A DNA stretch of 61,153 nucleotides from a virus (Duplodnaviria; Caudoviricetes). Positions 18,194 through 26,558 of the stretch are shown one piece after another. The notes beneath the pieces are model-generated. The model was not told the DNA's origin. It did not search any database and was given only the letters and a program-made list of their open reading frames with translations. The first letter of the stretch is position 1, and the number at the start of each line of letters is the position of its first letter. A program made the translations under genes and the position numbers. The stretch covers positions 1 to 61,153 of IMG/VR virus record IMGVR_UViG_3300009788_000013. One strand, written 5' to 3'.

Positions 18194-18754
18194 TTATGTC
18201 ACCTCATCCCAGAATATCGTTGCATTCACATCCGCCGCTACGATCCACTGATTTGTCACTTTTACGCGGAAGTTCTCATCACCGCCAACATAGGCCAGTG
18301 TATCGTAGTATTTATCTGGTGGCACGTACTCGCCATCCGACCCTCCCGCATATCCACCTGTTCGAATCACACCGATAATAGTCTCTACTGCCCCATCGCG
18401 TTTGATGATTGACCAGCTACATGGGACTGAACTGGACACTTGTACCCGTTTCAGTTTCCCTGTCGCTCCCACTGCAATCGTAGCAGCATCTAGATCAACG
18501 CTCGCATCCGCCGCCAAACTAGCTGATACCCTGTAATTGGAAACCGGATTAACCGGCCCCAAGATTTTCACCACCAGCCCGTGATCAGTACCAGGCGTCG
18601 GATCAGTATCGGTGACTACCGCAATGTCATCAGCACCTACACCGGCAATCTGATCCCGTTCTCGTTGGACAGTATTAGCGCCTACCGTGAGCTGCTCTGT
18701 GTCGAGCTTCTTACCGACGCCATCAGTCGGCAGCTGGATAATTGAATTAGACAC
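18194..18754 (-). CDS. Structural protein; C-terminal domain paralogous to 16490-17641
   Basis: FRVKVTN..AADVNATI vs FRVKFKN..AADVHAVI. Confidence 0.6.
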   Translation of the reverse strand: MSNSIIQLPTDGVGKKLDTEQLTVGANTVQRERDQIAGVGADDIAVVTDTDPTPGTDHGLVVKILGPVNPVSNYRVSASLAADASVDLDAATIAVGATGKLKRVQVSSSVPCSWSIIKRDGAVETIIGVIRTGGYAGGSDGEYVPPDKYYDTLAYVGGDENFRVKVTNQWIVAADVNATIFWDEVT

Positions 18755-20093
18755 CCGGCTGCTCCTCTACCCGCTCAGGGAGTCGCATCCTGGCACGTAG
18801 GTGATTCTCTAGATTATCGTCTGGGAATATTGCTGCTCCCGATTGGGCAAGATTCTTGAGCGCCGCTGTCAGCCTCTCAATATCCTCACGTGCTACGCTC
18901 GCCGGTCGAATCCTCGGCAGGCCCGCTGCTGGATGCCAAGCATTAACGGCGAACAATCGAGGGACAGCATGGATGTTGATCACATCAGCTATCGACTCCA
19001 TCCACCCATCAAGAGACGCTTCAAATATCGATGTCTTGTCCGTAGACAGCGCTCTACTGCCAACCGACTCGTGTCCGAGTAGAATCCAGTCAGCAAGCAC
19101 CACGCCTGCGATAGCGCCGTTCTCACGGCGAATTACAACGGTCGTATCAAACTGCTTAGCACCTGGAGCTTTCACTAGCTCGAATTTATAGCTCGGCTCG
19201 TTCGAGTCCTCCTGAATATCAGAGGGTAGAACTATTCCCTCTTGATCATCACGGCGGATGTCTTTGATTATCCTCTTCCATTCAGCTAGCTCAGTCGCTT
19301 TCCCTGGAGCGTTCGAGTCAAACAGCTCCCCCGGAACTCTCAGCACCGGGTACCCTACTAGATCGCGCTCGATTCCGATAGCCTCAATTTCCCTAATGTG
19401 TTTCTTCGCATACCACGCGATGTATGCCCCTTCCAGCACCGATCGCCCCTCTGGGTTGTTCTTGTGGTGGCTGGTGTTGAACAGCAGCATATTCTCAATT
19501 GGGATCTGTACCAGCTGATTCGAGTTAGCATCCCTCTGCTCGACTCCATTCAATCCCCCTTCATCATCAAAGAGCCAGCGCTCTATCGTCTCAGCACTGC
19601 GAGGTGCAAACTTTCGCCAGCCAATCTTCCGATCAGTATGATTACTGCGCCGGGAGCCATCTGTTTCTTCAGGGCCGGATCTGAGCTTATAGACGATTTC
19701 GAATGTTTGAAATCCGAAAGTCAACATCCAGAGCACCTCCGATATGAAGGCAGTCCAGGTGTGCGACATATCGTCTTTGGCCGATTGGAGGAAGTCTGCC
19801 GCTTCAGTCGATTCTGGTGTCTCATCTACTGCCTCAACCACCCACTGCACCCGACGCATCATCATTTCGATCGCGTGCATAATCGAGGCTACGGTATCGT
19901 CGTAGAGCCTCATCTCACGATACGTTTCCCAGCGCCTAGTTTTTGAGCGTAGTTCACGGAGCGCCGTCTCATCAATCACTCCGAGATGATGTCGCAGCCC
20001 AGTGGATCCGATCTCAGCGGAGATACGTCCAGGTGCTGGAGGCACAGCTGGAGCTAATTTCTCGGTGAGCCATCGGCGAGCGGAATCTAGCAC
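18747..20093 (-). CDS. Portal protein (DUF935 / Mu gp29-like)
   Basis: EIGSTG, FGFQTFEIVY, NPEGRSVL, ERDLVGYP, GSRAL. Confidence 0.88.
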   Translation of the reverse strand: MLDSARRWLTEKLAPAVPPAPGRISAEIGSTGLRHHLGVIDETALRELRSKTRRWETYREMRLYDDTVASIMHAIEMMMRRVQWVVEAVDETPESTEAADFLQSAKDDMSHTWTAFISEVLWMLTFGFQTFEIVYKLRSGPEETDGSRRSNHTDRKIGWRKFAPRSAETIERWLFDDEGGLNGVEQRDANSNQLVQIPIENMLLFNTSHHKNNPEGRSVLEGAYIAWYAKKHIREIEAIGIERDLVGYPVLRVPGELFDSNAPGKATELAEWKRIIKDIRRDDQEGIVLPSDIQEDSNEPSYKFELVKAPGAKQFDTTVVIRRENGAIAGVVLADWILLGHESVGSRALSTDKTSIFEASLDGWMESIADVINIHAVPRLFAVNAWHPAAGLPRIRPASVAREDIERLTAALKNLAQSGAAIFPDDNLENHLRARMRLPERVEEQPGV

Positions 20094-20099
20094 TAGCTA

Positions 20100-20133
20100 A
20101 TCGTAGCCGAGAGGGGGGGGTTTGACCAAACGG
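20100..20133 (-). promoter_or_regulatory. Putative late promoter (head operon), leaderless
   Basis: CCGTTT-22 nt-TACGAT, 6 nt before the portal GTG. Confidence 0.6.
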
Positions 20134-20212
20134 ATGTATCCAGAGATAGGCCGTGAGGGCGCGAGGATGCGCTCTACGCTGTCTCTAGGGATCTAATAGG
20201 GGAAATATACGG

Positions 20213-20286
20213 GGGCGGCAGCTTTGCGGGCCGCCGCCCTTTTGGGGATGTGTCGGATATGGATGCCTGAAAAACACACCCGACAC
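20213..20286 (-). terminator. Tandem hairpins ending the early-island transcript
   Basis: 12-bp stem (20250-20286) and 10-bp GC stem (20213-20239), with G-U pairs on the minus-strand RNA. Confidence 0.5.
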
Positions 20287-20484
20287 CTCTATACTAGCAC
20301 ATCCGAGGTGAAAATGACGCAGGGCAGTAGAGGAAATGATCTCTGCCGCCCCACTTGCGACTGTTCGCTATCGATCCCATCTTAGCATATCCGAGACAGG
20401 AACGACTCAGGAACAGCGACTCTTTAGCTGTGAGCAATTCTACAACTCCATCAAGAGCGAGCCGCTGTTCCGTGAGGCTTTCCC

Positions 20485-20697
20485 TCACCCGTCGTTCATA
20501 GGCACCTCCTCTCCTGTTACCCTCTTGGTAGAGAGCTTGTGCCATGCTCCAGGCACGCGCTCAGACTTAGCGATTCCAGGACCGGGATAAGGAGCCTTAT
20601 ATGGCCAATGGTAATTCCAGACTCCGCCATCTTCGTCGAGAGCATACGGATCTTCGTTCGCTCCGCAGGTAATCTGGACGAACTTCGGTTGTTTCAC
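20485..20697 (-). CDS. Hypothetical protein
   Basis: FVQI...YALDEDGGVW; coupled to neighbours. Confidence 0.55.
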   Translation of the reverse strand: MKQPKFVQITCGANEDPYALDEDGGVWNYHWPYKAPYPGPGIAKSERVPGAWHKLSTKRVTGEEVPMNDG

Positions 20698-21023
20698 CGC
20701 TCCCTCCCATCGGCTGCCACAAGCACACGCTCTAGTTGCGGTATGAATTCACCGAAATCGTAAATTCCCCCTTCGGGCGAGTCTACAAACCGTAGCGCCT
20801 GAATGGCTCGCTCCAGCGCCTCATACATGGCCGGGGCCTGCGCGATCAGCCGGGCATTGTTGCGCTGCCATTTATTGTGGATTCTTTCATCCAGTACGGT
20901 TGCAATATGGTGCGGGGTGATGTCCCAGTTTCGTTTGTCCGGGGTGATGTACGCGCAGTGGCACTCGTCGTCTCTCTCTATGTGCCACGGCCCCGGCGTC
21001 CACTTCGGCTTGTCAGTGCTCAT
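20694..21023 (-). CDS. Phage TPGPW-motif hypothetical protein
   Basis: WTPGPW...NARLIAQAPAMYEAL. Confidence 0.75.
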   Translation of the reverse strand: MSTDKPKWTPGPWHIERDDECHCAYITPDKRNWDITPHHIATVLDERIHNKWQRNNARLIAQAPAMYEALERAIQALRFVDSPEGGIYDFGEFIPQLERVLVAADGRER

Positions 21024-21328
21024 CTTTTCTCCCTTCGTATCCTGTATTCAAACAGTCCACCATCCCCTATCCTGCGGCGCTCTATGTCATACCCTCCGAA
21101 GCGGCTCTTACGGAAATCTCGCAGCCGCGCCGAAACACTCGCCTCCGGGTATCCGAGCTGTAGACTAATCTCCCGCAGCGTGCGCCAATCCCCATCGATC
21201 ATCAAATCAAAGACTGCCTGAGCCTGCCGTCCGAGTCTAACTTGATCCTTTTCTGGCTCGTAGGTTGCGCCATCAAAATTCATATCATGGAATTGCTCAG
21301 ACCATGGAAATAGGCTGGGTTGCCTCAT
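21020..21328 (-). CDS. Winged-HTH DNA-binding protein
   Basis: WRTLREISLQLGYPEASVSARLRDFRK. Confidence 0.75.
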   Translation of the reverse strand: MRQPSLFPWSEQFHDMNFDGATYEPEKDQVRLGRQAQAVFDLMIDGDWRTLREISLQLGYPEASVSARLRDFRKSRFGGYDIERRRIGDGGLFEYRIRREKR

Positions 21329-21587
21329 GCTTCCCCTTCTGCTTCGCTCTCCAAGCCGCAACCGCTAACCGATTCTTGCACTTCGGGCAGGTTCCGCATT
21401 CGCACGTCCGGGGACGCCCACCCCCTCGGCGTCTCTTCGGCGTCCGGAGGTAGAGCGAGCGGATCTCGTGACAGATAGACTTGACTGTCCGGGCTGGGCC
21501 AAAAGGCCCGCCATCGCGCTGGAGCCCAACCTTTACAGCTTTCTCTAGATACGGCGCCTCTAATGCCGGTGGTAGTTTAGTTTTCAT
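21297..21587 (-). CDS. AT-hook / Zn-knuckle small protein
   Basis: GGRPRTCECGTCPKC. Confidence 0.6.
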   Translation of the reverse strand: MKTKLPPALEAPYLEKAVKVGLQRDGGPFGPARTVKSICHEIRSLYLRTPKRRRGGGRPRTCECGTCPKCKNRLAVAAWRAKQKGKHEATQPISMV

Positions 21588-21822
21588 ATTGGTTCCTCAC
21601 GTTACCATTCAATATTCGAAATAATCTAGTCAGTACTTGAATGGTAACCTCCGCTCCTTTGATCGATTTAAGCGCCAGATCTAGAGCCACTGCCGCCTCA
21701 TCTAGCTCCACCTCTAGTGCAGTGATACTCCGAGCCTGTGCTCCCTGGCCGTAGCAGTCACAGCCAGCATCGACGTTGCCGCAGCACGGACAGTATGGTT
21801 TGCTGTTGCTCATCGATTCCAA
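21577..21822 (-). CDS. Small Cys-motif coiled-coil protein
   Basis: CPCCG..CDC followed by heptads. Confidence 0.5.
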   Translation of the reverse strand: MESMSNSKPYCPCCGNVDAGCDCYGQGAQARSITALEVELDEAAVALDLALKSIKGAEVTIQVLTRLFRILNGNVRNQYEN

Positions 21823-22115
21823 GCCTCCTTCGTCCCGTAGCCGAGCTGGTGGCCCTCTATGAGGTAGAAGGCATCCTCGGGCGCTTCGTTGCTATAGCGC
21901 CGGGGCTTTGGCTGGTAGTGGCCGGGATTAACATATGGGGGGGGATCACCTTCGCCATCCCATTCCTCTTCGTTCTCCTCTTCGATGTCAGAGGCACAGA
22001 GCATATTGGCGACGGTGTTCTCAAACGGCCAGTTGTCCTGACTCATGATCCGAACTTCCATGCCCTCGTCCAAACCCTCAATAGCGTCTTTTAGATCTCT
22101 AATCGTCATGTTCAT
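21810..22115 (-). CDS. Acidic hypothetical protein
   Basis: MTIRDLKDAIE...EVRIMSQ-NWPFE...EG-QLGYG-K-AW; start placed downstream of the hammerhead. Confidence 0.65.
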   Translation of the reverse strand: MNMTIRDLKDAIEGLDEGMEVRIMSQDNWPFENTVANMLCASDIEEENEEEWDGEGDPPPYVNPGHYQPKPRRYSNEAPEDAFYLIEGHQLGYGTKEAWNR

Positions 22116-22127
22116 TTCCTTTCGGCT

Positions 22128-22181
22128 TCCTCCTACCCACCGGGTTTCGGGCGGGGGCCACCCGCCCATCATCAGGGAGGA
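22128..22181 (-). ncRNA. Type I hammerhead ribozyme
   Basis: UCCUCC-CUGAUGA-U-GGGCGGG(UGGCC)CCCGCCC-GAAA-CCC(GGU)GGG-UA-GGAGGA: full catalytic core and three paired stems. Confidence 0.88.
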
Positions 22182-22182
22182 T

Positions 22183-22878
22183 TTAGGCTGCTACCCCTTC
22201 GGCTATCCGTGCGAGCTTCTTATTTCTACCGGCATGAGATCTCATCTTCTGAGCCGCACCGATCGCACGATACCACCCGCAACCATCCAGATACTCGCTG
22301 AAATCACCAGGCCGCAGGTATTCGCCCGCTCGCTTCATGGCGAAGAATCGCTCATAGCGTTGTTCTACAGCAGTTCGTGCAGCTTCTACCAGATCCCAGT
22401 ACTGCTCCGCTTTGCCAGCAGCGTCGTGTGGTGTCTGCACGATCGGGATACCGCCAGCATCGACTACCACCCGCACCCAGGCTTGCGAACCATGATTGGC
22501 ACCGCCACATCGGCAGTCGCAGTTTGGCCCTCTCGCGAAAGTGCATCGGGCATCACATGGGCAGCGGTCCTCGTCACGAACTAACCGTGTCCGCTGTGTT
22601 CGCCCGAGGTATTCAATCCAACCATCACAAGCCCCACATTTCCCTTTCCGCCCGATACCCTGCTCATCGACGTACCAGGGTAACTCCTCATCGACGGTAA
22701 CGACTGACAAACAGTCATTGCAGCGATAGAAGTGGCGGGTTGTCATCTTTACTGGCGGAACGGGAGCTGCAACACTATCCTCAGTCCCCGCATCTGAAAA
22801 CAGGATGTCCAACAAGTCCTGTTGCGTGGGGCCAACTACTACTGGCCGTTTTACCTTTGCCGCGTTTACTTTTTCCAT
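22183..22878 (-). CDS. Cys-rich Zn-binding early protein
   Basis: CNDC, CGAC, CDARCTFARGPNCDCRCGGANHG. Confidence 0.7.
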   Translation of the reverse strand: MEKVNAAKVKRPVVVGPTQQDLLDILFSDAGTEDSVAAPVPPVKMTTRHFYRCNDCLSVVTVDEELPWYVDEQGIGRKGKCGACDGWIEYLGRTQRTRLVRDEDRCPCDARCTFARGPNCDCRCGGANHGSQAWVRVVVDAGGIPIVQTPHDAAGKAEQYWDLVEAARTAVEQRYERFFAMKRAGEYLRPGDFSEYLDGCGWYRAIGAAQKMRSHAGRNKKLARIAEGVAA

Positions 22879-22884
22879 ACTCTA

Positions 22885-22941
22885 ACTTTACTACATCCCT
22901 GTGTCATTGTAAAGCAAAATCGTACAATGCTAGCAAAATAA
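22885..22941 (-). promoter_or_regulatory. Early promoter plus operator
   Basis: TTTACA-17-TAAAGT, 6 nt before ATG; 18-bp ACAATGCTAGCAAAATAA at 22924-22941. Confidence 0.75.
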
Positions 22942-23136
22942 TTCCAAACTGCCCTGTCAACACGAATCCCGGGGGTACCCCCCCCCTTTCAGGTTGACGC
23001 TACAGGGGAGCTGAGGATCGCCCAGGGGAGCTTGCCTGTGCGAGGTAGACGGGAAACACTACCGAGGGGCCGAATGCCCCATACAGGCGATCCTGGGGCC
23101 TCTATCGCTATTCTGTAAGGCCCCAGGGATGGGTGA

Positions 23137-23655
23137 TCAGGCACCCAACAGCGTAGCCACGCGACCAGCAATCCGTACCGCCTGATCCCAGTCCCAACAT
23201 TTTGCCAGCGCGAGTACCTGGCGAATAGGCTCTTTCGGCTTCAGAGCATCCCCACGGTTAATCGCATCCACATGGATATAATATCCCTCACTCCCGCCCG
23301 TGACTGGATACACTGCAATCCAGCTAGCGCGATGGGGCCATGGCGAGTCAGCGCCAACAGATTGAACAGGCCCGTATGTGGAAGTCTCACCATAGCTGTT
23401 ATCGAATCCGTATTCATCAGGTGTGTTGCCCTCTGCTTCCAGGATTGCGTTTAGCTGCCCTAGCACGTTCCGCACGGTTCGATGATCTTCGCGTACCGTG
23501 ATCATCAATTCTGGATCAAAGTCACACTGGCGACATCTACCAGCTGCTTCCTCCCACTGCTCAAAACAGCCCATCGGTGTCTCATACCAGACTTCCGACA
23601 GGATCACTTTCGCAGCATCAATCCGGGAGCCGCTACCGGTACAAGTTACGATCAT
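23137..23655 (-). CDS. Hypothetical protein
   Basis: SD GGAGG; VTGGSEGYYIHVD motif. Confidence 0.65.
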   Translation of the reverse strand: MIVTCTGSGSRIDAAKVILSEVWYETPMGCFEQWEEAAGRCRQCDFDPELMITVREDHRTVRNVLGQLNAILEAEGNTPDEYGFDNSYGETSTYGPVQSVGADSPWPHRASWIAVYPVTGGSEGYYIHVDAINRGDALKPKEPIRQVLALAKCWDWDQAVRIAGRVATLLGA

Positions 23656-23711
23656 TTCTGATCACCTCCACCCACTGCGCGCCCCCAGTCAAGCGCAGTC
23701 GGCGCGGGCGA

Positions 23712-24611
23712 TCAGGCTGCTACCGCCTTCACTGCGGCCCGCTTCTGCATCCAGTCACATGCCTGCTGCGCCTTCGATGCTGCTATAAAGATGGCCTTCT
23801 TATCGGCCTTCAGAACTCGGAGCCAGTGCTGGATGTACTGGGCGTGATCTTCCCGAGGCTCGCTGCTCAGGCCGAGGTGATTACAAGTGAAGGCCGCGCC
23901 TAACTCTGCAATCAACTCCTCAGCTGCGTAAGCGTCATCCCCGAACCGCTTTCCAAGCTGCCGATCGCATCGACTCGCCTCTGATGTCCAGTGCACTATT
24001 TCGTGCGCCAGAGTCGAGTAGTAGTCAGTATTTGAATTGAAATCATTGAATGCCGGCATCGTGATCTCATCCAGCATCTCTGAGTAGCAGGCTCGGCCCC
24101 CACCATGCTGCACCGGAGCGCCTGTAGCGGAGAAGAATTCGTCGGCCTCGGCGATGTGCTCGTTGGGCTCTTTCTCGATCCGCTCCGGTGCTTCATACCC
24201 GTCTACCTGGGCTGCGTTGAAAACTGAGTAGCCGCGCACGAATAGGAGCCGAGATCGGGACTGAACCTCTTCACTATCCTCGGCCTCATCCTTCGTCTTC
24301 GTATCGGCGAACTTCCAGAGCACTATGAGCGTGGCTTTCTCTCCCTTACGAACCTGAGCGCCTTTCGTTTTCCACTGCTTATACGTCCCCCATTCGCCGC
24401 TGTCGTAGCCCTTGGCTGCTGCTGCTGCCATCAGGCAGAGAGTGTTGATCCCTCGGTAGGGGTGCTTGCTCGTGACGTTGGCCGGGGCCATCGCCCCAGT
24501 CGAGTGCCAGGGCATCTTCCATTTGCCTACGCCGTTCTCAATCGCTGCGATGATCTGATCGGTGACTCGCTGGTAGACATCCTGTTTGCTTGCCGCGTTT
24601 CGTTGTTCCAT
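23712..24611 (-). CDS. ardC: ArdC-like antirestriction ssDNA-binding protein (N-terminal domain plus MPTase)
   Basis: W-MPW, Y-GIN, TYKQW, VRKGEK, VFNAAQVDG, HEIVHWT, YAAEELIAELGAAF, YIQHWL. Confidence 0.92.
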   Translation of the reverse strand: MEQRNAASKQDVYQRVTDQIIAAIENGVGKWKMPWHSTGAMAPANVTSKHPYRGINTLCLMAAAAAKGYDSGEWGTYKQWKTKGAQVRKGEKATLIVLWKFADTKTKDEAEDSEEVQSRSRLLFVRGYSVFNAAQVDGYEAPERIEKEPNEHIAEADEFFSATGAPVQHGGGRACYSEMLDEITMPAFNDFNSNTDYYSTLAHEIVHWTSEASRCDRQLGKRFGDDAYAAEELIAELGAAFTCNHLGLSSEPREDHAQYIQHWLRVLKADKKAIFIAASKAQQACDWMQKRAAVKAVAA

Positions 24612-24617
24612 ATTTAT

Positions 24618-24674
24618 ATATTACAATATGGCTCAGGAGATGTAAAGCGAAAAACAACAATGCTAGCAAAATAA
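24618..24674 (-). promoter_or_regulatory. Early promoter plus operator
   Basis: TTTACA-17-TAATAT, 6 nt before the ardC ATG; identical 18-bp site at 24657-24674. Confidence 0.78.
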
Positions 24675-24775
24675 ATCTAGATCGCTGAGAATCGCCCAGG
24701 GACGTTCGCCTATGGTAGGGTATGGGAAACCACTACCGAGAAGTCAGAATCGCTCTAGGAGTGATCCTAGGGGCT

Positions 24776-26098
24776 CTAGCGGCGCTCGTAGCCGGACTGA
24801 TGATCATCTTTGGGGATGAACAGCGGCCCAACTACCACTGGCCGGCGACGGCGCACGAGGAGCTTTGACAGCGCGTACACCATGGCGTCTACCCGATCCG
24901 GGGATTTCCCATCAACGTGGGGCTGCCACGTGCACATCTGAGCTTCGAGCATCGGCATCGATCCGATATGGTGGATTCTTCCCTGCTCGTAGAGCATCTG
25001 GATCGGTTCAGCCCTTGCCTGTTTTCCTCTGCTCGCATGGATCAACGATATTGGCAGTTTGCCGCCCGCCCCATTGATCGTGTCGCGTACCATTTCCCCA
25101 CCCTGATTTTTTTCCGCTACGATCACATCAGCATCCCAGCTCTCATAGAGATCACGAGTCCGACGCCCCCATGCTGACGGCATCATTTTGCCGCTCGCGT
25201 CGTGCAGGATATACCCGTCCCCGTCCACGCCTTCACCCGCTACGATGATCCCTGCCTCATCCGCCCCTTCCCCGTCGCTCAGGCTCGGATCAACAGCGAT
25301 TACGATCCTCTTCAGCTCCGGGGCTTGATTCACTCGATACCGATCAATTAGGGCATTACTCCACAAGGCCCCCGGCATATCCTCTAGCAGCTCTCCAAGG
25401 AGTTCCTGCTGAGCAAGGCTCGTCCCCTCATATTGCTCGATGAACTCCGCGAAGCTCGCGCCCAGGTTCGCCAGATTCTCGTAGGTGGTTCCCCTAGTGG
25501 TGACAGTGTGAGGTGAGTCTAGGATAGCTCTCAGCTTCGGAATCGGCTTTGGTGTCGTCGCTACCATACACTGGGCCTTGCCAAGTCGCAGGGCCAACAT
25601 CAGCGTGTCCCAGAGGTTATTTGCTCCGGGGCTCGCTAGATACCGACACGCCGCCAGCTCATCGATCCATGCCCAGTGGAACTGAGGACCGCGAAGGCGC
25701 TCTGGTGTATCGCCCGAGTAGATCTTCGCCAGTGATCCATTCTTGAATTTCAATTCCCCCAATGAGCGGTTCCAGTCTGTAATCATCCCAGGAGCGAGTA
25801 CTGACAGCAGCCCAGATGATCCTTCCACACACACATCACGGGCCGAGGTAAATGTGGGTGCGACGATTGCTGCTCGCTGCTCAGGCTCACCGACTAACCG
25901 GAGAGCAGTCTCCTCAGCCCCGCTTCGGGTTTTTCCGGTTCCCCTTCCCGCTAAGAAGATCCACGTGCGCCACGGCTGTTCCGTTCGTGGGGGGAGCTGA
26001 TTCGACCTTGCCTGTAATCTCCAGCGGAGGCGGTATTTTGCCTGGGTGTCCAGGTTGCGCCAGTCCTTGCTCGGCGAAGAGTCTGGTGATCTGGGCAT
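24776..26098 (-). CDS. terL: Terminase large subunit
   Basis: AGRGTGKT, RLRGPQF, WIDE, ATTP, IAVDP, SPDRVDA. Confidence 0.95.
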   Translation of the reverse strand: MPRSPDSSPSKDWRNLDTQAKYRLRWRLQARSNQLPPRTEQPWRTWIFLAGRGTGKTRSGAEETALRLVGEPEQRAAIVAPTFTSARDVCVEGSSGLLSVLAPGMITDWNRSLGELKFKNGSLAKIYSGDTPERLRGPQFHWAWIDELAACRYLASPGANNLWDTLMLALRLGKAQCMVATTPKPIPKLRAILDSPHTVTTRGTTYENLANLGASFAEFIEQYEGTSLAQQELLGELLEDMPGALWSNALIDRYRVNQAPELKRIVIAVDPSLSDGEGADEAGIIVAGEGVDGDGYILHDASGKMMPSAWGRRTRDLYESWDADVIVAEKNQGGEMVRDTINGAGGKLPISLIHASRGKQARAEPIQMLYEQGRIHHIGSMPMLEAQMCTWQPHVDGKSPDRVDAMVYALSKLLVRRRRPVVVGPLFIPKDDHQSGYERR

Positions 26099-26558
26099 CT
26101 ATGTCTACCTGTCCAGCGTGAACTGTCACATCTAGTCTACCGCCAGCGTCTAGGCCCAGCAATGTGGCCCGCCTGGCTTCAGCGGCAATCACTGCCATTG
26201 CAGCTCGGATCTGCTCAGAGGGCGTCCCACTCCGAACGATCGCCATCATGTCCAGCTCAATCCGCAGGAGCCTCATGTCCATCATTTGAACGATCTGCTC
26301 TGCTGTCTCCCTGGTATGCCGGATCACGTTGTCCAACTGGCGAGTGACTCGCTGGTAAGCGGTGGATAATGAGCAGTTCTGGGTGGAGGCGATCTCCTGA
26401 AATGAGGCCCCGTCTCGGCGGTGGTTGAGGGCTTGAAGTTCCAGCTCAACCTTCGTGATCAGTTTTTCTTTGATGCGGCCCTTGACCTTGGGCTGGTTTT
26501 TCTTCTTGCCCTTATCAGCACCGGGCTTCGGCTTTGGGCTGGCTCGTTTTTTAGTCAC
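25914..26558 (-). CDS. terS: Terminase small subunit (HTH)
   Basis: HTH GASFQEIA..STAYQRV, RRATLLGLDA; immediately upstream of terL. Confidence 0.7.
   Translation of the reverse strand: MTKKRASPKPKPGADKGKKKNQPKVKGRIKEKLITKVELELQALNHRRDGASFQEIASTQNCSLSTAYQRVTRQLDNVIRHTRETAEQIVQMMDMRLLRIELDMMAIVRSGTPSEQIRAAMAVIAAEARRATLLGLDAGGRLDVTVHAGQVDIDAQITRLFAEQGLAQPGHPGKIPPPLEITGKVESAPPTNGTAVAHVDLLSGKGNRKNPKRG

Follow-up and report, generated by a model that had tools for sequence, protein, structure and literature searches.

It has been known since 2011 that phages and prophages carry hammerhead ribozymes. The main text of Perreault et al. 2011 (PMC3088659) describes prophage hammerheads that flank single genes, and clustered copies that cleave native polycistronic transcripts of ~2 kb in vitro, together with one case of cleavage in vivo in E. 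coli. The same main text reports pseudoknots in all three hammerhead types, on which fast cleavage at 0.5 mM Mg depends, places ardA directly downstream of hammerheads, and contains none of the terms 'Shine-Dalgarno', 'ribosome binding' or 'translation'. Passages in two reviews (PMC6155905 and PMC6765202) describe prokaryotic hammerheads as often flanking small, non-conserved ORFs and as persistently tied to phages, with a role that is unsettled.

The element described here is a genuine hammerhead of this known kind in a typical setting, with cleavage predicted from its sequence. As in the main text of Perreault et al. 2011, where type I hammerheads are also present, the core follows the consensus and a candidate pseudoknot links stems I and II. 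The placement is likewise similar, between genes of what would be a long phage transcript, among small and varied genes, and near an anti-restriction gene.

Anatomy of the ribozyme site

The window, by which we mean the whole stretch of DNA that was analysed, corresponds to a virus record of 61,153 bp that is complete and carries direct terminal repeats. The ribozyme site comprises the following features.

22128..22181, minus strand: type I hammerhead, stems I–III and core (direct reading, descriptor, shuffles, MFE fold, model R1)
22185–22183, minus strand: upstream stop codon TAA (direct reading)
22182, minus strand: single spacer base between the stop and stem I (direct reading)
22176..22181, minus strand: stem I, 5' strand, partner of 22128–22133 (reading, descriptor, fold)
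22169..22175, minus strand: core C3–A9 (CUGAUGA), with N7 at 22171 (direct reading)
22168, minus strand: extra U between A9 and G10.1 (direct reading)
22167–22161 with 22155–22149, minus strand: stem II, 7 Watson–Crick pairs (reading, descriptor, fold)
22156–22160, minus strand: loop II (direct reading)
22145..22148, minus strand: core G12, A13 and A14 plus A15.1 (GAAA) (direct reading)
22145–22142 with 22138–22135, minus strand: stem III, 4 pairs including A15.1–U16.1 (direct reading)
22141–22139, minus strand: loop of stem III, 3 nt (direct reading)
22134, minus strand: A17, the H17 position (direct reading)
22133..22134, minus strand: predicted cleavage site between A17 (22134) and G1.1 (22133) (position in the hammerhead consensus)
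22128..22133, minus strand: stem I, 3' strand GGAGGA, with which the predicted 3' product begins (reading, descriptor)
22123..22126, minus strand: 3' tail GCCG, which can form a 4-bp pseudoknot with 22157–22160 of loop II (from covariation in the class)

The hammerhead core is complete, comprising C3 U4 G5 A6 N7 G8 A9, the G12 A13 A14 block, the A15.1–U16.1 pair and an H17 that is not G, and the helices are formed by Watson–Crick pairs throughout, with 6, 7 and 4 bp in stems I, II and III, respectively. The preliminary description had read a type I hammerhead at these positions, and the core, the three stems and the U after A9 are all present on the minus strand. Its cleavage site, and with it the 5' end of the 3' product, agree with the position predicted by the hammerhead consensus, and the ribozyme does lie directly after a stop codon, from which one base separates stem I. 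Positions 22160–22157 of loop II could pair with the tail at 22126–22123 through three G–C pairs and one terminal G–U pair, a pseudoknot that we infer for the window copy from the covariation seen in its class (see below).

Chance occurrence, folding and annotation by Rfam

With a descriptor of our own, no type I match other than 22128–22181 was obtained in the window and 17 related loci, and the window gave no other hammerhead when all three topologies were allowed with relaxed stem thresholds. The CTGATGA heptamer occurs 25 times on the two strands of the window; when the whole window was shuffled 1500 times with its dinucleotide composition preserved, the descriptor never matched, whether the thresholds for stems I/II/III are loose (4/3/3), middle (5/4/3) or strict (6/7/4). 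The three-way junction is both the MFE and the centroid structure when 71 nt are folded with RNAfold, and it is part of both structures when 201 nt are folded. The fold energies themselves are no better than those of shuffles (z-scores of −0.85 for 71 nt and +0.47 for 201 nt).

A comparison with the Rfam hammerhead models, a check that the preliminary description had proposed, returned no match. No Rfam hammerhead family reached its gathering score in the whole window, none reached E ≤ 10 in the 501 nt or 101 nt around the site, and RF00163, run alone against the genome, gave no match, with two candidates scored. An overlap with CRISPR-DR15 (14 bits, E 1.8–8.8) was rejected as chance, the gathering score of that family being 36. 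The negative Rfam result at the window is uninformative, because 15 of 15 control phage loci with textbook, descriptor-perfect type I hammerheads likewise stayed below the gathering score. The outcome was the same in another 20 loci, of which 19 contain one or more hammerheads: no hammerhead was called there, whereas tRNAs and Twister-P5 were. At Rfam gathering scores, hammerheads were called in 0 of the 34 tested loci known to hold one, which means that annotation by these scores lacks sensitivity for phage type I hammerheads; model RF00163 does not cover the hammerhead class of the window.

A class of phage hammerheads that abut stop codons

Viral contigs were scanned for the core enclosed by the stem I ends of the window (CTCC…GGAG; scan 1), which gave 25 loci. 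Complete type I hammerheads are present in 15 of these, the other 10 being coding look-alikes, and in composition-matched controls hammerheads were found in none of 42 loci (GGAG…CTCC) and none of 61 loci (GAGC…GCTC). The second control contains an observation of its own, namely a conserved 62-nt stretch in many contigs of 4–8 kb (L089–L149, for example L094 and L107). This stretch starts like a hammerhead core and has GAAG in place of GAAA; none of its copies passed the descriptor, and it is probably coding.

A second scan of viral contigs relied on features of stem II and loop II and took no account of stem I or the flanks; it gave at least 115 loci, and 105 of the 119 pattern matches among those listed are complete type I hammerheads. 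The class is defined by a U after A9, a stem II that starts with GG, a loop II of UGGN, and a tail N'CC(A/G) that lies 0–2 nt past stem I, and, in its placement, by a stop codon that ends 0–3 nt before stem I. The pseudoknot and the position of the stop codon were not selection criteria for class members; the stems were. The window carries each of these features, with U at 22168, GG at 22167–22166, UGGC at 22160–22157, the GCCG tail one base past stem I, and a stop that ends 1 nt before stem I.

Among the matches listed, the 105 distinct members carry U (101) or G (4) as the inserted base after A9, U (61), C (39), A (4) or G (1) at N7, and C (103) or A (2) at H17, so the GUA triplet of the window is a rare variant. 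Stem I has 5 bp in 82 of these 105 listed members, stem II has 6 bp in 53 (the class range being 5–8 bp), and stem III has 3–4 bp in 26. All four pairs between loop II (UGGN) and the tail (N'CC(A/G)) can form in 76 of the 105 members among the matches listed, as against 45.6 ± 3.0 fully paired members, and 55 at most, when the tails of these members are permuted (1000 permutations). The fourth base of loop II covaries with the first base of the tail in the listed members, the combinations being UGGC:GCCA (34 members), UGGU:ACCA (16), UGGC:GCCG, which is the type of the window (9), UGGG:CCCA (4) and UGGA:UCCA (2). In L226 the pseudoknot has a 6-bp version of different sequence.

A stop codon ends 0–3 nt before stem I in 68 of the 105 members among the matches listed, with 34, 18, 12 and 4 members at offsets 0, 1, 2 and 3, respectively, as against 3.19 per offset further upstream. 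On the other side of the ribozyme, the next start codon mostly lies 24–60 nt after the cleavage site in the listed members. We note that 20 of 77 members (L155–L234, for example L165, L164 and L175; among the matches listed) have a second copy of the 5' strand of stem I further downstream, with which the 3' strand could form a new helix; the cleaved downstream RNA would thereby acquire a 5'-terminal hairpin with the pseudoknot tail in its loop. The window lacks this option.

A covariance model (R1) was built from an alignment of 44 class hammerheads of other phages, with the window and its relative L150 left out. Two MAFFT alignments of mixed type I hammerheads (A4 and A5) misplaced the GAAA block and were kept out of the model. 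In the 44-sequence alignment, 93.2% of the cells in the stems and pseudoknot are paired, as against 73.0% after shuffling, with the observed value reached in none of 500 shuffles, and 32–44% after sliding; 17 of the 21 pairs have changes on both sides. For stems I–III the pairing counts are to some extent circular, since stems were already a requirement of the descriptor used to pick the members. At the window, R1 aligns over its full length (model positions 1–67) to 22120–22180 with 57.5 bits (E 1.1e-14, by a rough calibration), and it finds no other match at E ≤ 10 in the 61-kb genome. Ten other type I hammerheads of scan 1 that R1 found score 26.6–50.4 bits, lower than the window.

Conservation in a relative

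One homolog of the downstream protein, 80% identical to it, is encoded on L150, a metagenome contig of 1092 nt. The two genes and the ribozyme between them are arranged there as in the window, and the two sequences are roughly 85% identical overall. The 54-nt element is the most similar part (51 of 54 positions, 94.4%), followed by the upstream gene (145 of 168, 86.3%), the downstream gene (249 of 304, 81.9%) and the spacer (14 of 18, 77.8%). The three changes within the element are U to C at N7 (22171), the one free position of the core; A to C at H17 (22134); and C to U at 22142, a one-sided change by which a C–G pair of stem III becomes U–G. By a fourth change, just outside the element, a U–A pair replaces the A–A mismatch at the stem I end. 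Neither sequence departs from the consensus at any of the 11 invariant core bases, the tail of L150 is GCUA and would still pair with loop II, and L150 scores 56.6 bits with R1 (for which E-values are rough). At the level of sequence, these comparisons establish the motif, its non-random nature, its membership of the class and its conservation.

Proposed processing of a polycistronic message

The ribozyme is flanked by two genes of the same strand.

22183..22878, minus strand: upstream gene P0001, 231 aa, Cys-rich hypothetical protein (ORF list, translation)
22107..22120, minus strand: AGGA at 22120–22117, followed by the start codon ATG at 22109–22107 (P0003/P0004, L150)
21810..22109, minus strand: downstream gene, 99 aa, hypothetical protein (gene calls P0003/P0004)

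Nearly all long ORFs of the window are on the minus strand, and because the genes of the phage lie on one strand, the ribozyme would be transcribed within a polycistronic mRNA. We consider it probable that the window element is a genuine type I hammerhead of an abundant phage class that cuts this mRNA and uncouples its cistrons. Self-cleavage we infer from the motif, its class membership and its conservation, and from published work on such hammerheads. Among the sequencing runs listed as containing the stretch there is one DNA run, which may be the source sample, and no RNA run. Processing of the polycistron, as the preliminary description had suggested, is the best reading.

Once its 54 nt had been made, the element would fold and cut between 22134 and 22133. 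The 5' product would contain the upstream cistron and end in a 2',3'-cyclic phosphate. Because type I cleavage separates very little of the ribozyme from the upstream message, that message would be closed at its 3' end by the compact, G+C-rich fold of the ribozyme. The 3' product would carry a 5'-OH, start 24 nt before the next start codon, and retain 6 nt of the ribozyme in a purine-rich leader. The two cistrons would become separate mRNAs, with their decay and translation uncoupled. This uncoupling is most likely the purpose of cleavage, and it is the least supported step of the scheme; effects on mRNA stability and on translation are conjectural.

A more far-reaching reading, which we regard as doubtful, takes the stop-abutting type I hammerheads as a separate kind of phage device, widespread and overlooked at current Rfam thresholds, and takes their placement as functional. 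Because stem I begins 0–3 nt after the stop codon, a terminating ribosome must melt stem I and the core. Cleavage might then be confined to intervals in which no ribosome is passing, or to the time before the first one has arrived, so that it would report the translation of the upstream gene and set the ratio and the lifetime of the messages of neighbouring accessory genes. Where stem I contains GGAGG, cleavage would in addition expose the ribosome binding site that follows, and the conserved 60-nt unit might double as a joint of exchangeable single-gene cassettes. These last two possibilities can also be taken as the main function of the element, and both have been weighed as such.

The downstream start and the proposed release of a Shine–Dalgarno sequence

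The preliminary description had proposed that cleavage frees Shine–Dalgarno (SD)-like purines for the next gene. As a main job of an active ribozyme, this would mean that a CCUCC/GGAGG stem I is opened by cleavage and that translation of the downstream gene is thereby turned on, which we consider quite unlikely. In its favour, scan 1 recovered hammerheads with CTCC…GGAG ends in 15 of 25 loci and in no control locus, and GGAGG ends 6–10 nt before an ATG in 8 of the 16 hammerheads in these 15 loci, namely those of L022, L023, L024, L026, L031, L033 (twice) and L046. The two hammerheads of L033 (699–1141, minus strand) are 394 nt apart and flank a gene of 109 codons.

The geometry in the window differs from that of these loci. 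The downstream start is ATG 22109, because the gene calls P0003/P0004 start there and because the ATG at 22115 is ACG in L150. An ORF that begins at ATG 22172, inside the ribozyme, was also considered and was ruled out by the gene calls, by the start of the relative at 22109 and by homologs without an N-terminal extension. The GGAGG of stem I is 19 nt from ATG 22109, whereas the AGGA of the downstream gene, its own SD-like purines, lies 7 nt upstream of that start. The cost of opening the RNA from the SD to the AUG is the same before (2.1–2.6 kcal/mol) and after cleavage (2.2 kcal/mol), and only the far leader gains 1.5–3 kcal/mol upon cleavage, both values being computed without the pseudoknot. 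Among class members from the scan that was blind to stem I, the 3' strand of stem I is mostly not SD-like, the predominant sequences being GCGGG (45 of 105 members) and GUGGG (15 of 105) among the matches listed. The proposal is weakly supported in the window, with its own AGGA and an unchanged opening cost, and it is supported in other phages in which GGAGG lies near an ATG. The titles and abstract openings of the papers listed for hammerheads together with SD sequences or ribosome binding sites in phages and prophages describe no natural phage case of an SD sequence in stem I.

Gene neighbourhood

The larger genes around the site are as follows.

24776–26098: large terminase (Terminase_6N/6C)
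23712–24611: ArdC-like anti-restriction protein (phrog_7245, E 1.7e-95)
18747–20093: portal (Portal_Mu)

Between the large terminase and the portal is a stretch of ~4.7 kb (20094–24775) with about ten small ORFs, within which the ArdC-like gene lies three ORFs upstream of the ribozyme site. In three portal relatives that also contain the terminase (L015, L019 and L020) the terminase ends ~100 nt before the portal with no island between them, and from this direct adjacency we take the stretch of the window to be an accessory island. The flanking genes had been labelled as early genes, a label that their place in this island of small genes between terminase and portal does not support.

Several further observations concern this region. 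An ORF at 25914–26558 (minus strand), which lies immediately upstream of the terminase and overlaps its start, matches phrog_645 'Rnase E' (E 2.9e-13); by its position it could instead be the small terminase subunit. A strong, G+C-rich, terminator-like hairpin of 10 pairs, 9 of them G–C, is found at 20213–20239 (minus strand), at the end of the island before the portal. Around the island as a whole there is no excess of promoter-like sites (6, as against 4.5 in shuffles) or of terminator-like sites (6, as against 4.8 in shuffles).

The upstream protein has 15 homologs, all hypothetical and with conserved Cys motifs, and it has no Pfam family. It shares with P0005–P0017 the invariant clusters RC.DC, CG.C, CPCD.RCT and C.C.C, which suggest zinc binding. 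A blastn comparison of the 2 kb around the site with 50,697 phage records gave no match, and a search for related loci with the upstream protein alone gave no relative. Scans with R1 found no hammerhead in 17 portal-related loci (178 kb) and none in 4 loci where the upstream gene has a distant homolog. The hammerhead of the window is sporadic rather than fixed in its neighbourhood, because both the relatives of the portal and the loci of the upstream homologs lack one. A tie between the hammerhead and the upstream protein family was ruled out by the same 4 loci, in which the homologs are 36–41% identical and no core occurs within 400 nt past the stop.

The island makes it worth asking whether the hammerhead is the edge of a mobile single-gene cassette, in which the conserved ribozyme of ~60 nt moves together with the small gene that follows it, or a stretch of homology for recombination, with RNA cleavage as a secondary property. 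Besides the absence of the 4.7-kb island from the three relatives, at least two class hammerheads, often near-identical and flanking one small gene, are present in 17 of 85 loci among the matches listed, and the ORFs next to class hammerheads are small and varied, their 118 proteins falling into 90 clusters (again among the matches listed). A distant homolog of the downstream gene is itself found between two class hammerheads: in L215 (9640–10031, plus strand) they flank a 77-aa gene, the first 36 residues of which are identical to the downstream protein of the window at 14 positions (39%; E 1.8e-4 against 2.2 Mb). However, a single gene family is linked in this way, and its members are only weakly similar; the window has no repeat or second copy; and the strict conservation of the catalytic residues, with changes only at tolerated positions, argues for selection on cleavage and not merely on DNA homology. 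We give this explanation little chance.

An inactive look-alike or relic, that is, a G+C-rich hairpin that stabilises the upstream 3' end or pauses transcription, is highly improbable: it would account for the missing Rfam match, the short stem III (4 bp with a 3-nt loop), the rare GUA triplet and the extra core base, but it is contradicted by the absence of matches in the 1500 shuffles, by the R1 match (E 1.1e-14), by the 11 invariant core bases kept intact in the window and L150 with changes at tolerated positions only, and by the blindness of Rfam to 15 of 15 textbook examples, and such a hairpin would at best be a stabiliser, because no T run follows it and the terminator-like sites do not include it.

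Comparison with known systems

Hammerhead_1 of Rfam (RF00163; 45 positions, gathering score 34 bits) has the type I topology and the core of the window element, and the window falls short of E ≤ 10 against it. In engineered ribozyme insulators and RBS switches of bacteria, a hammerhead is placed just upstream of the RBS and its cleavage sets the 5' end of the mRNA. These devices are man-made, whereas the window element is natural and its functional SD lies outside stem I.

De la Pena and Flores reportedly described, in J Biol Chem in 2001, a viroid hammerhead with an extra nucleotide in its core; the extra base is said to lie between A9 and stem II, as in the phage class, and to be A, not U. 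That viroid hammerhead replicates as RNA, whereas the phage class is encoded in DNA and its insertion is nearly fixed as U. Stems I and II of the viroid hammerhead are both closed by loops, according to a passage in PMC2632901.

Twister ribozymes share the type of neighbourhood, and differ in fold and catalytic core. No twister was found in the window by the Rfam scan; in L234, a class hammerhead is followed after ~580 nt by a Twister-P5 (RF02684; 3337–3392, plus strand), which scores 53 bits where the gathering score is 37.6.

The closest systems are the hammerheads in the main text of Perreault et al. 2011, for which the proposed role, processing of polycistronic RNA, is the one favoured here. 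Those hammerheads occur in clusters, whereas the window holds a single copy. The class itself, with its U after A9, the pairing between a UGGN loop and the tail, and the abutment on a stop codon, may already be included in that work, the comparison being with its main text. To the phage and prophage hammerheads known since 2011, the window adds a further clean example, in a complete 61-kb phage genome and with a conserved relative, and it has led to a sharply defined class, which is marked by a near-invariant U after A9, a covarying 3'-tail pseudoknot and a start right after a stop codon.
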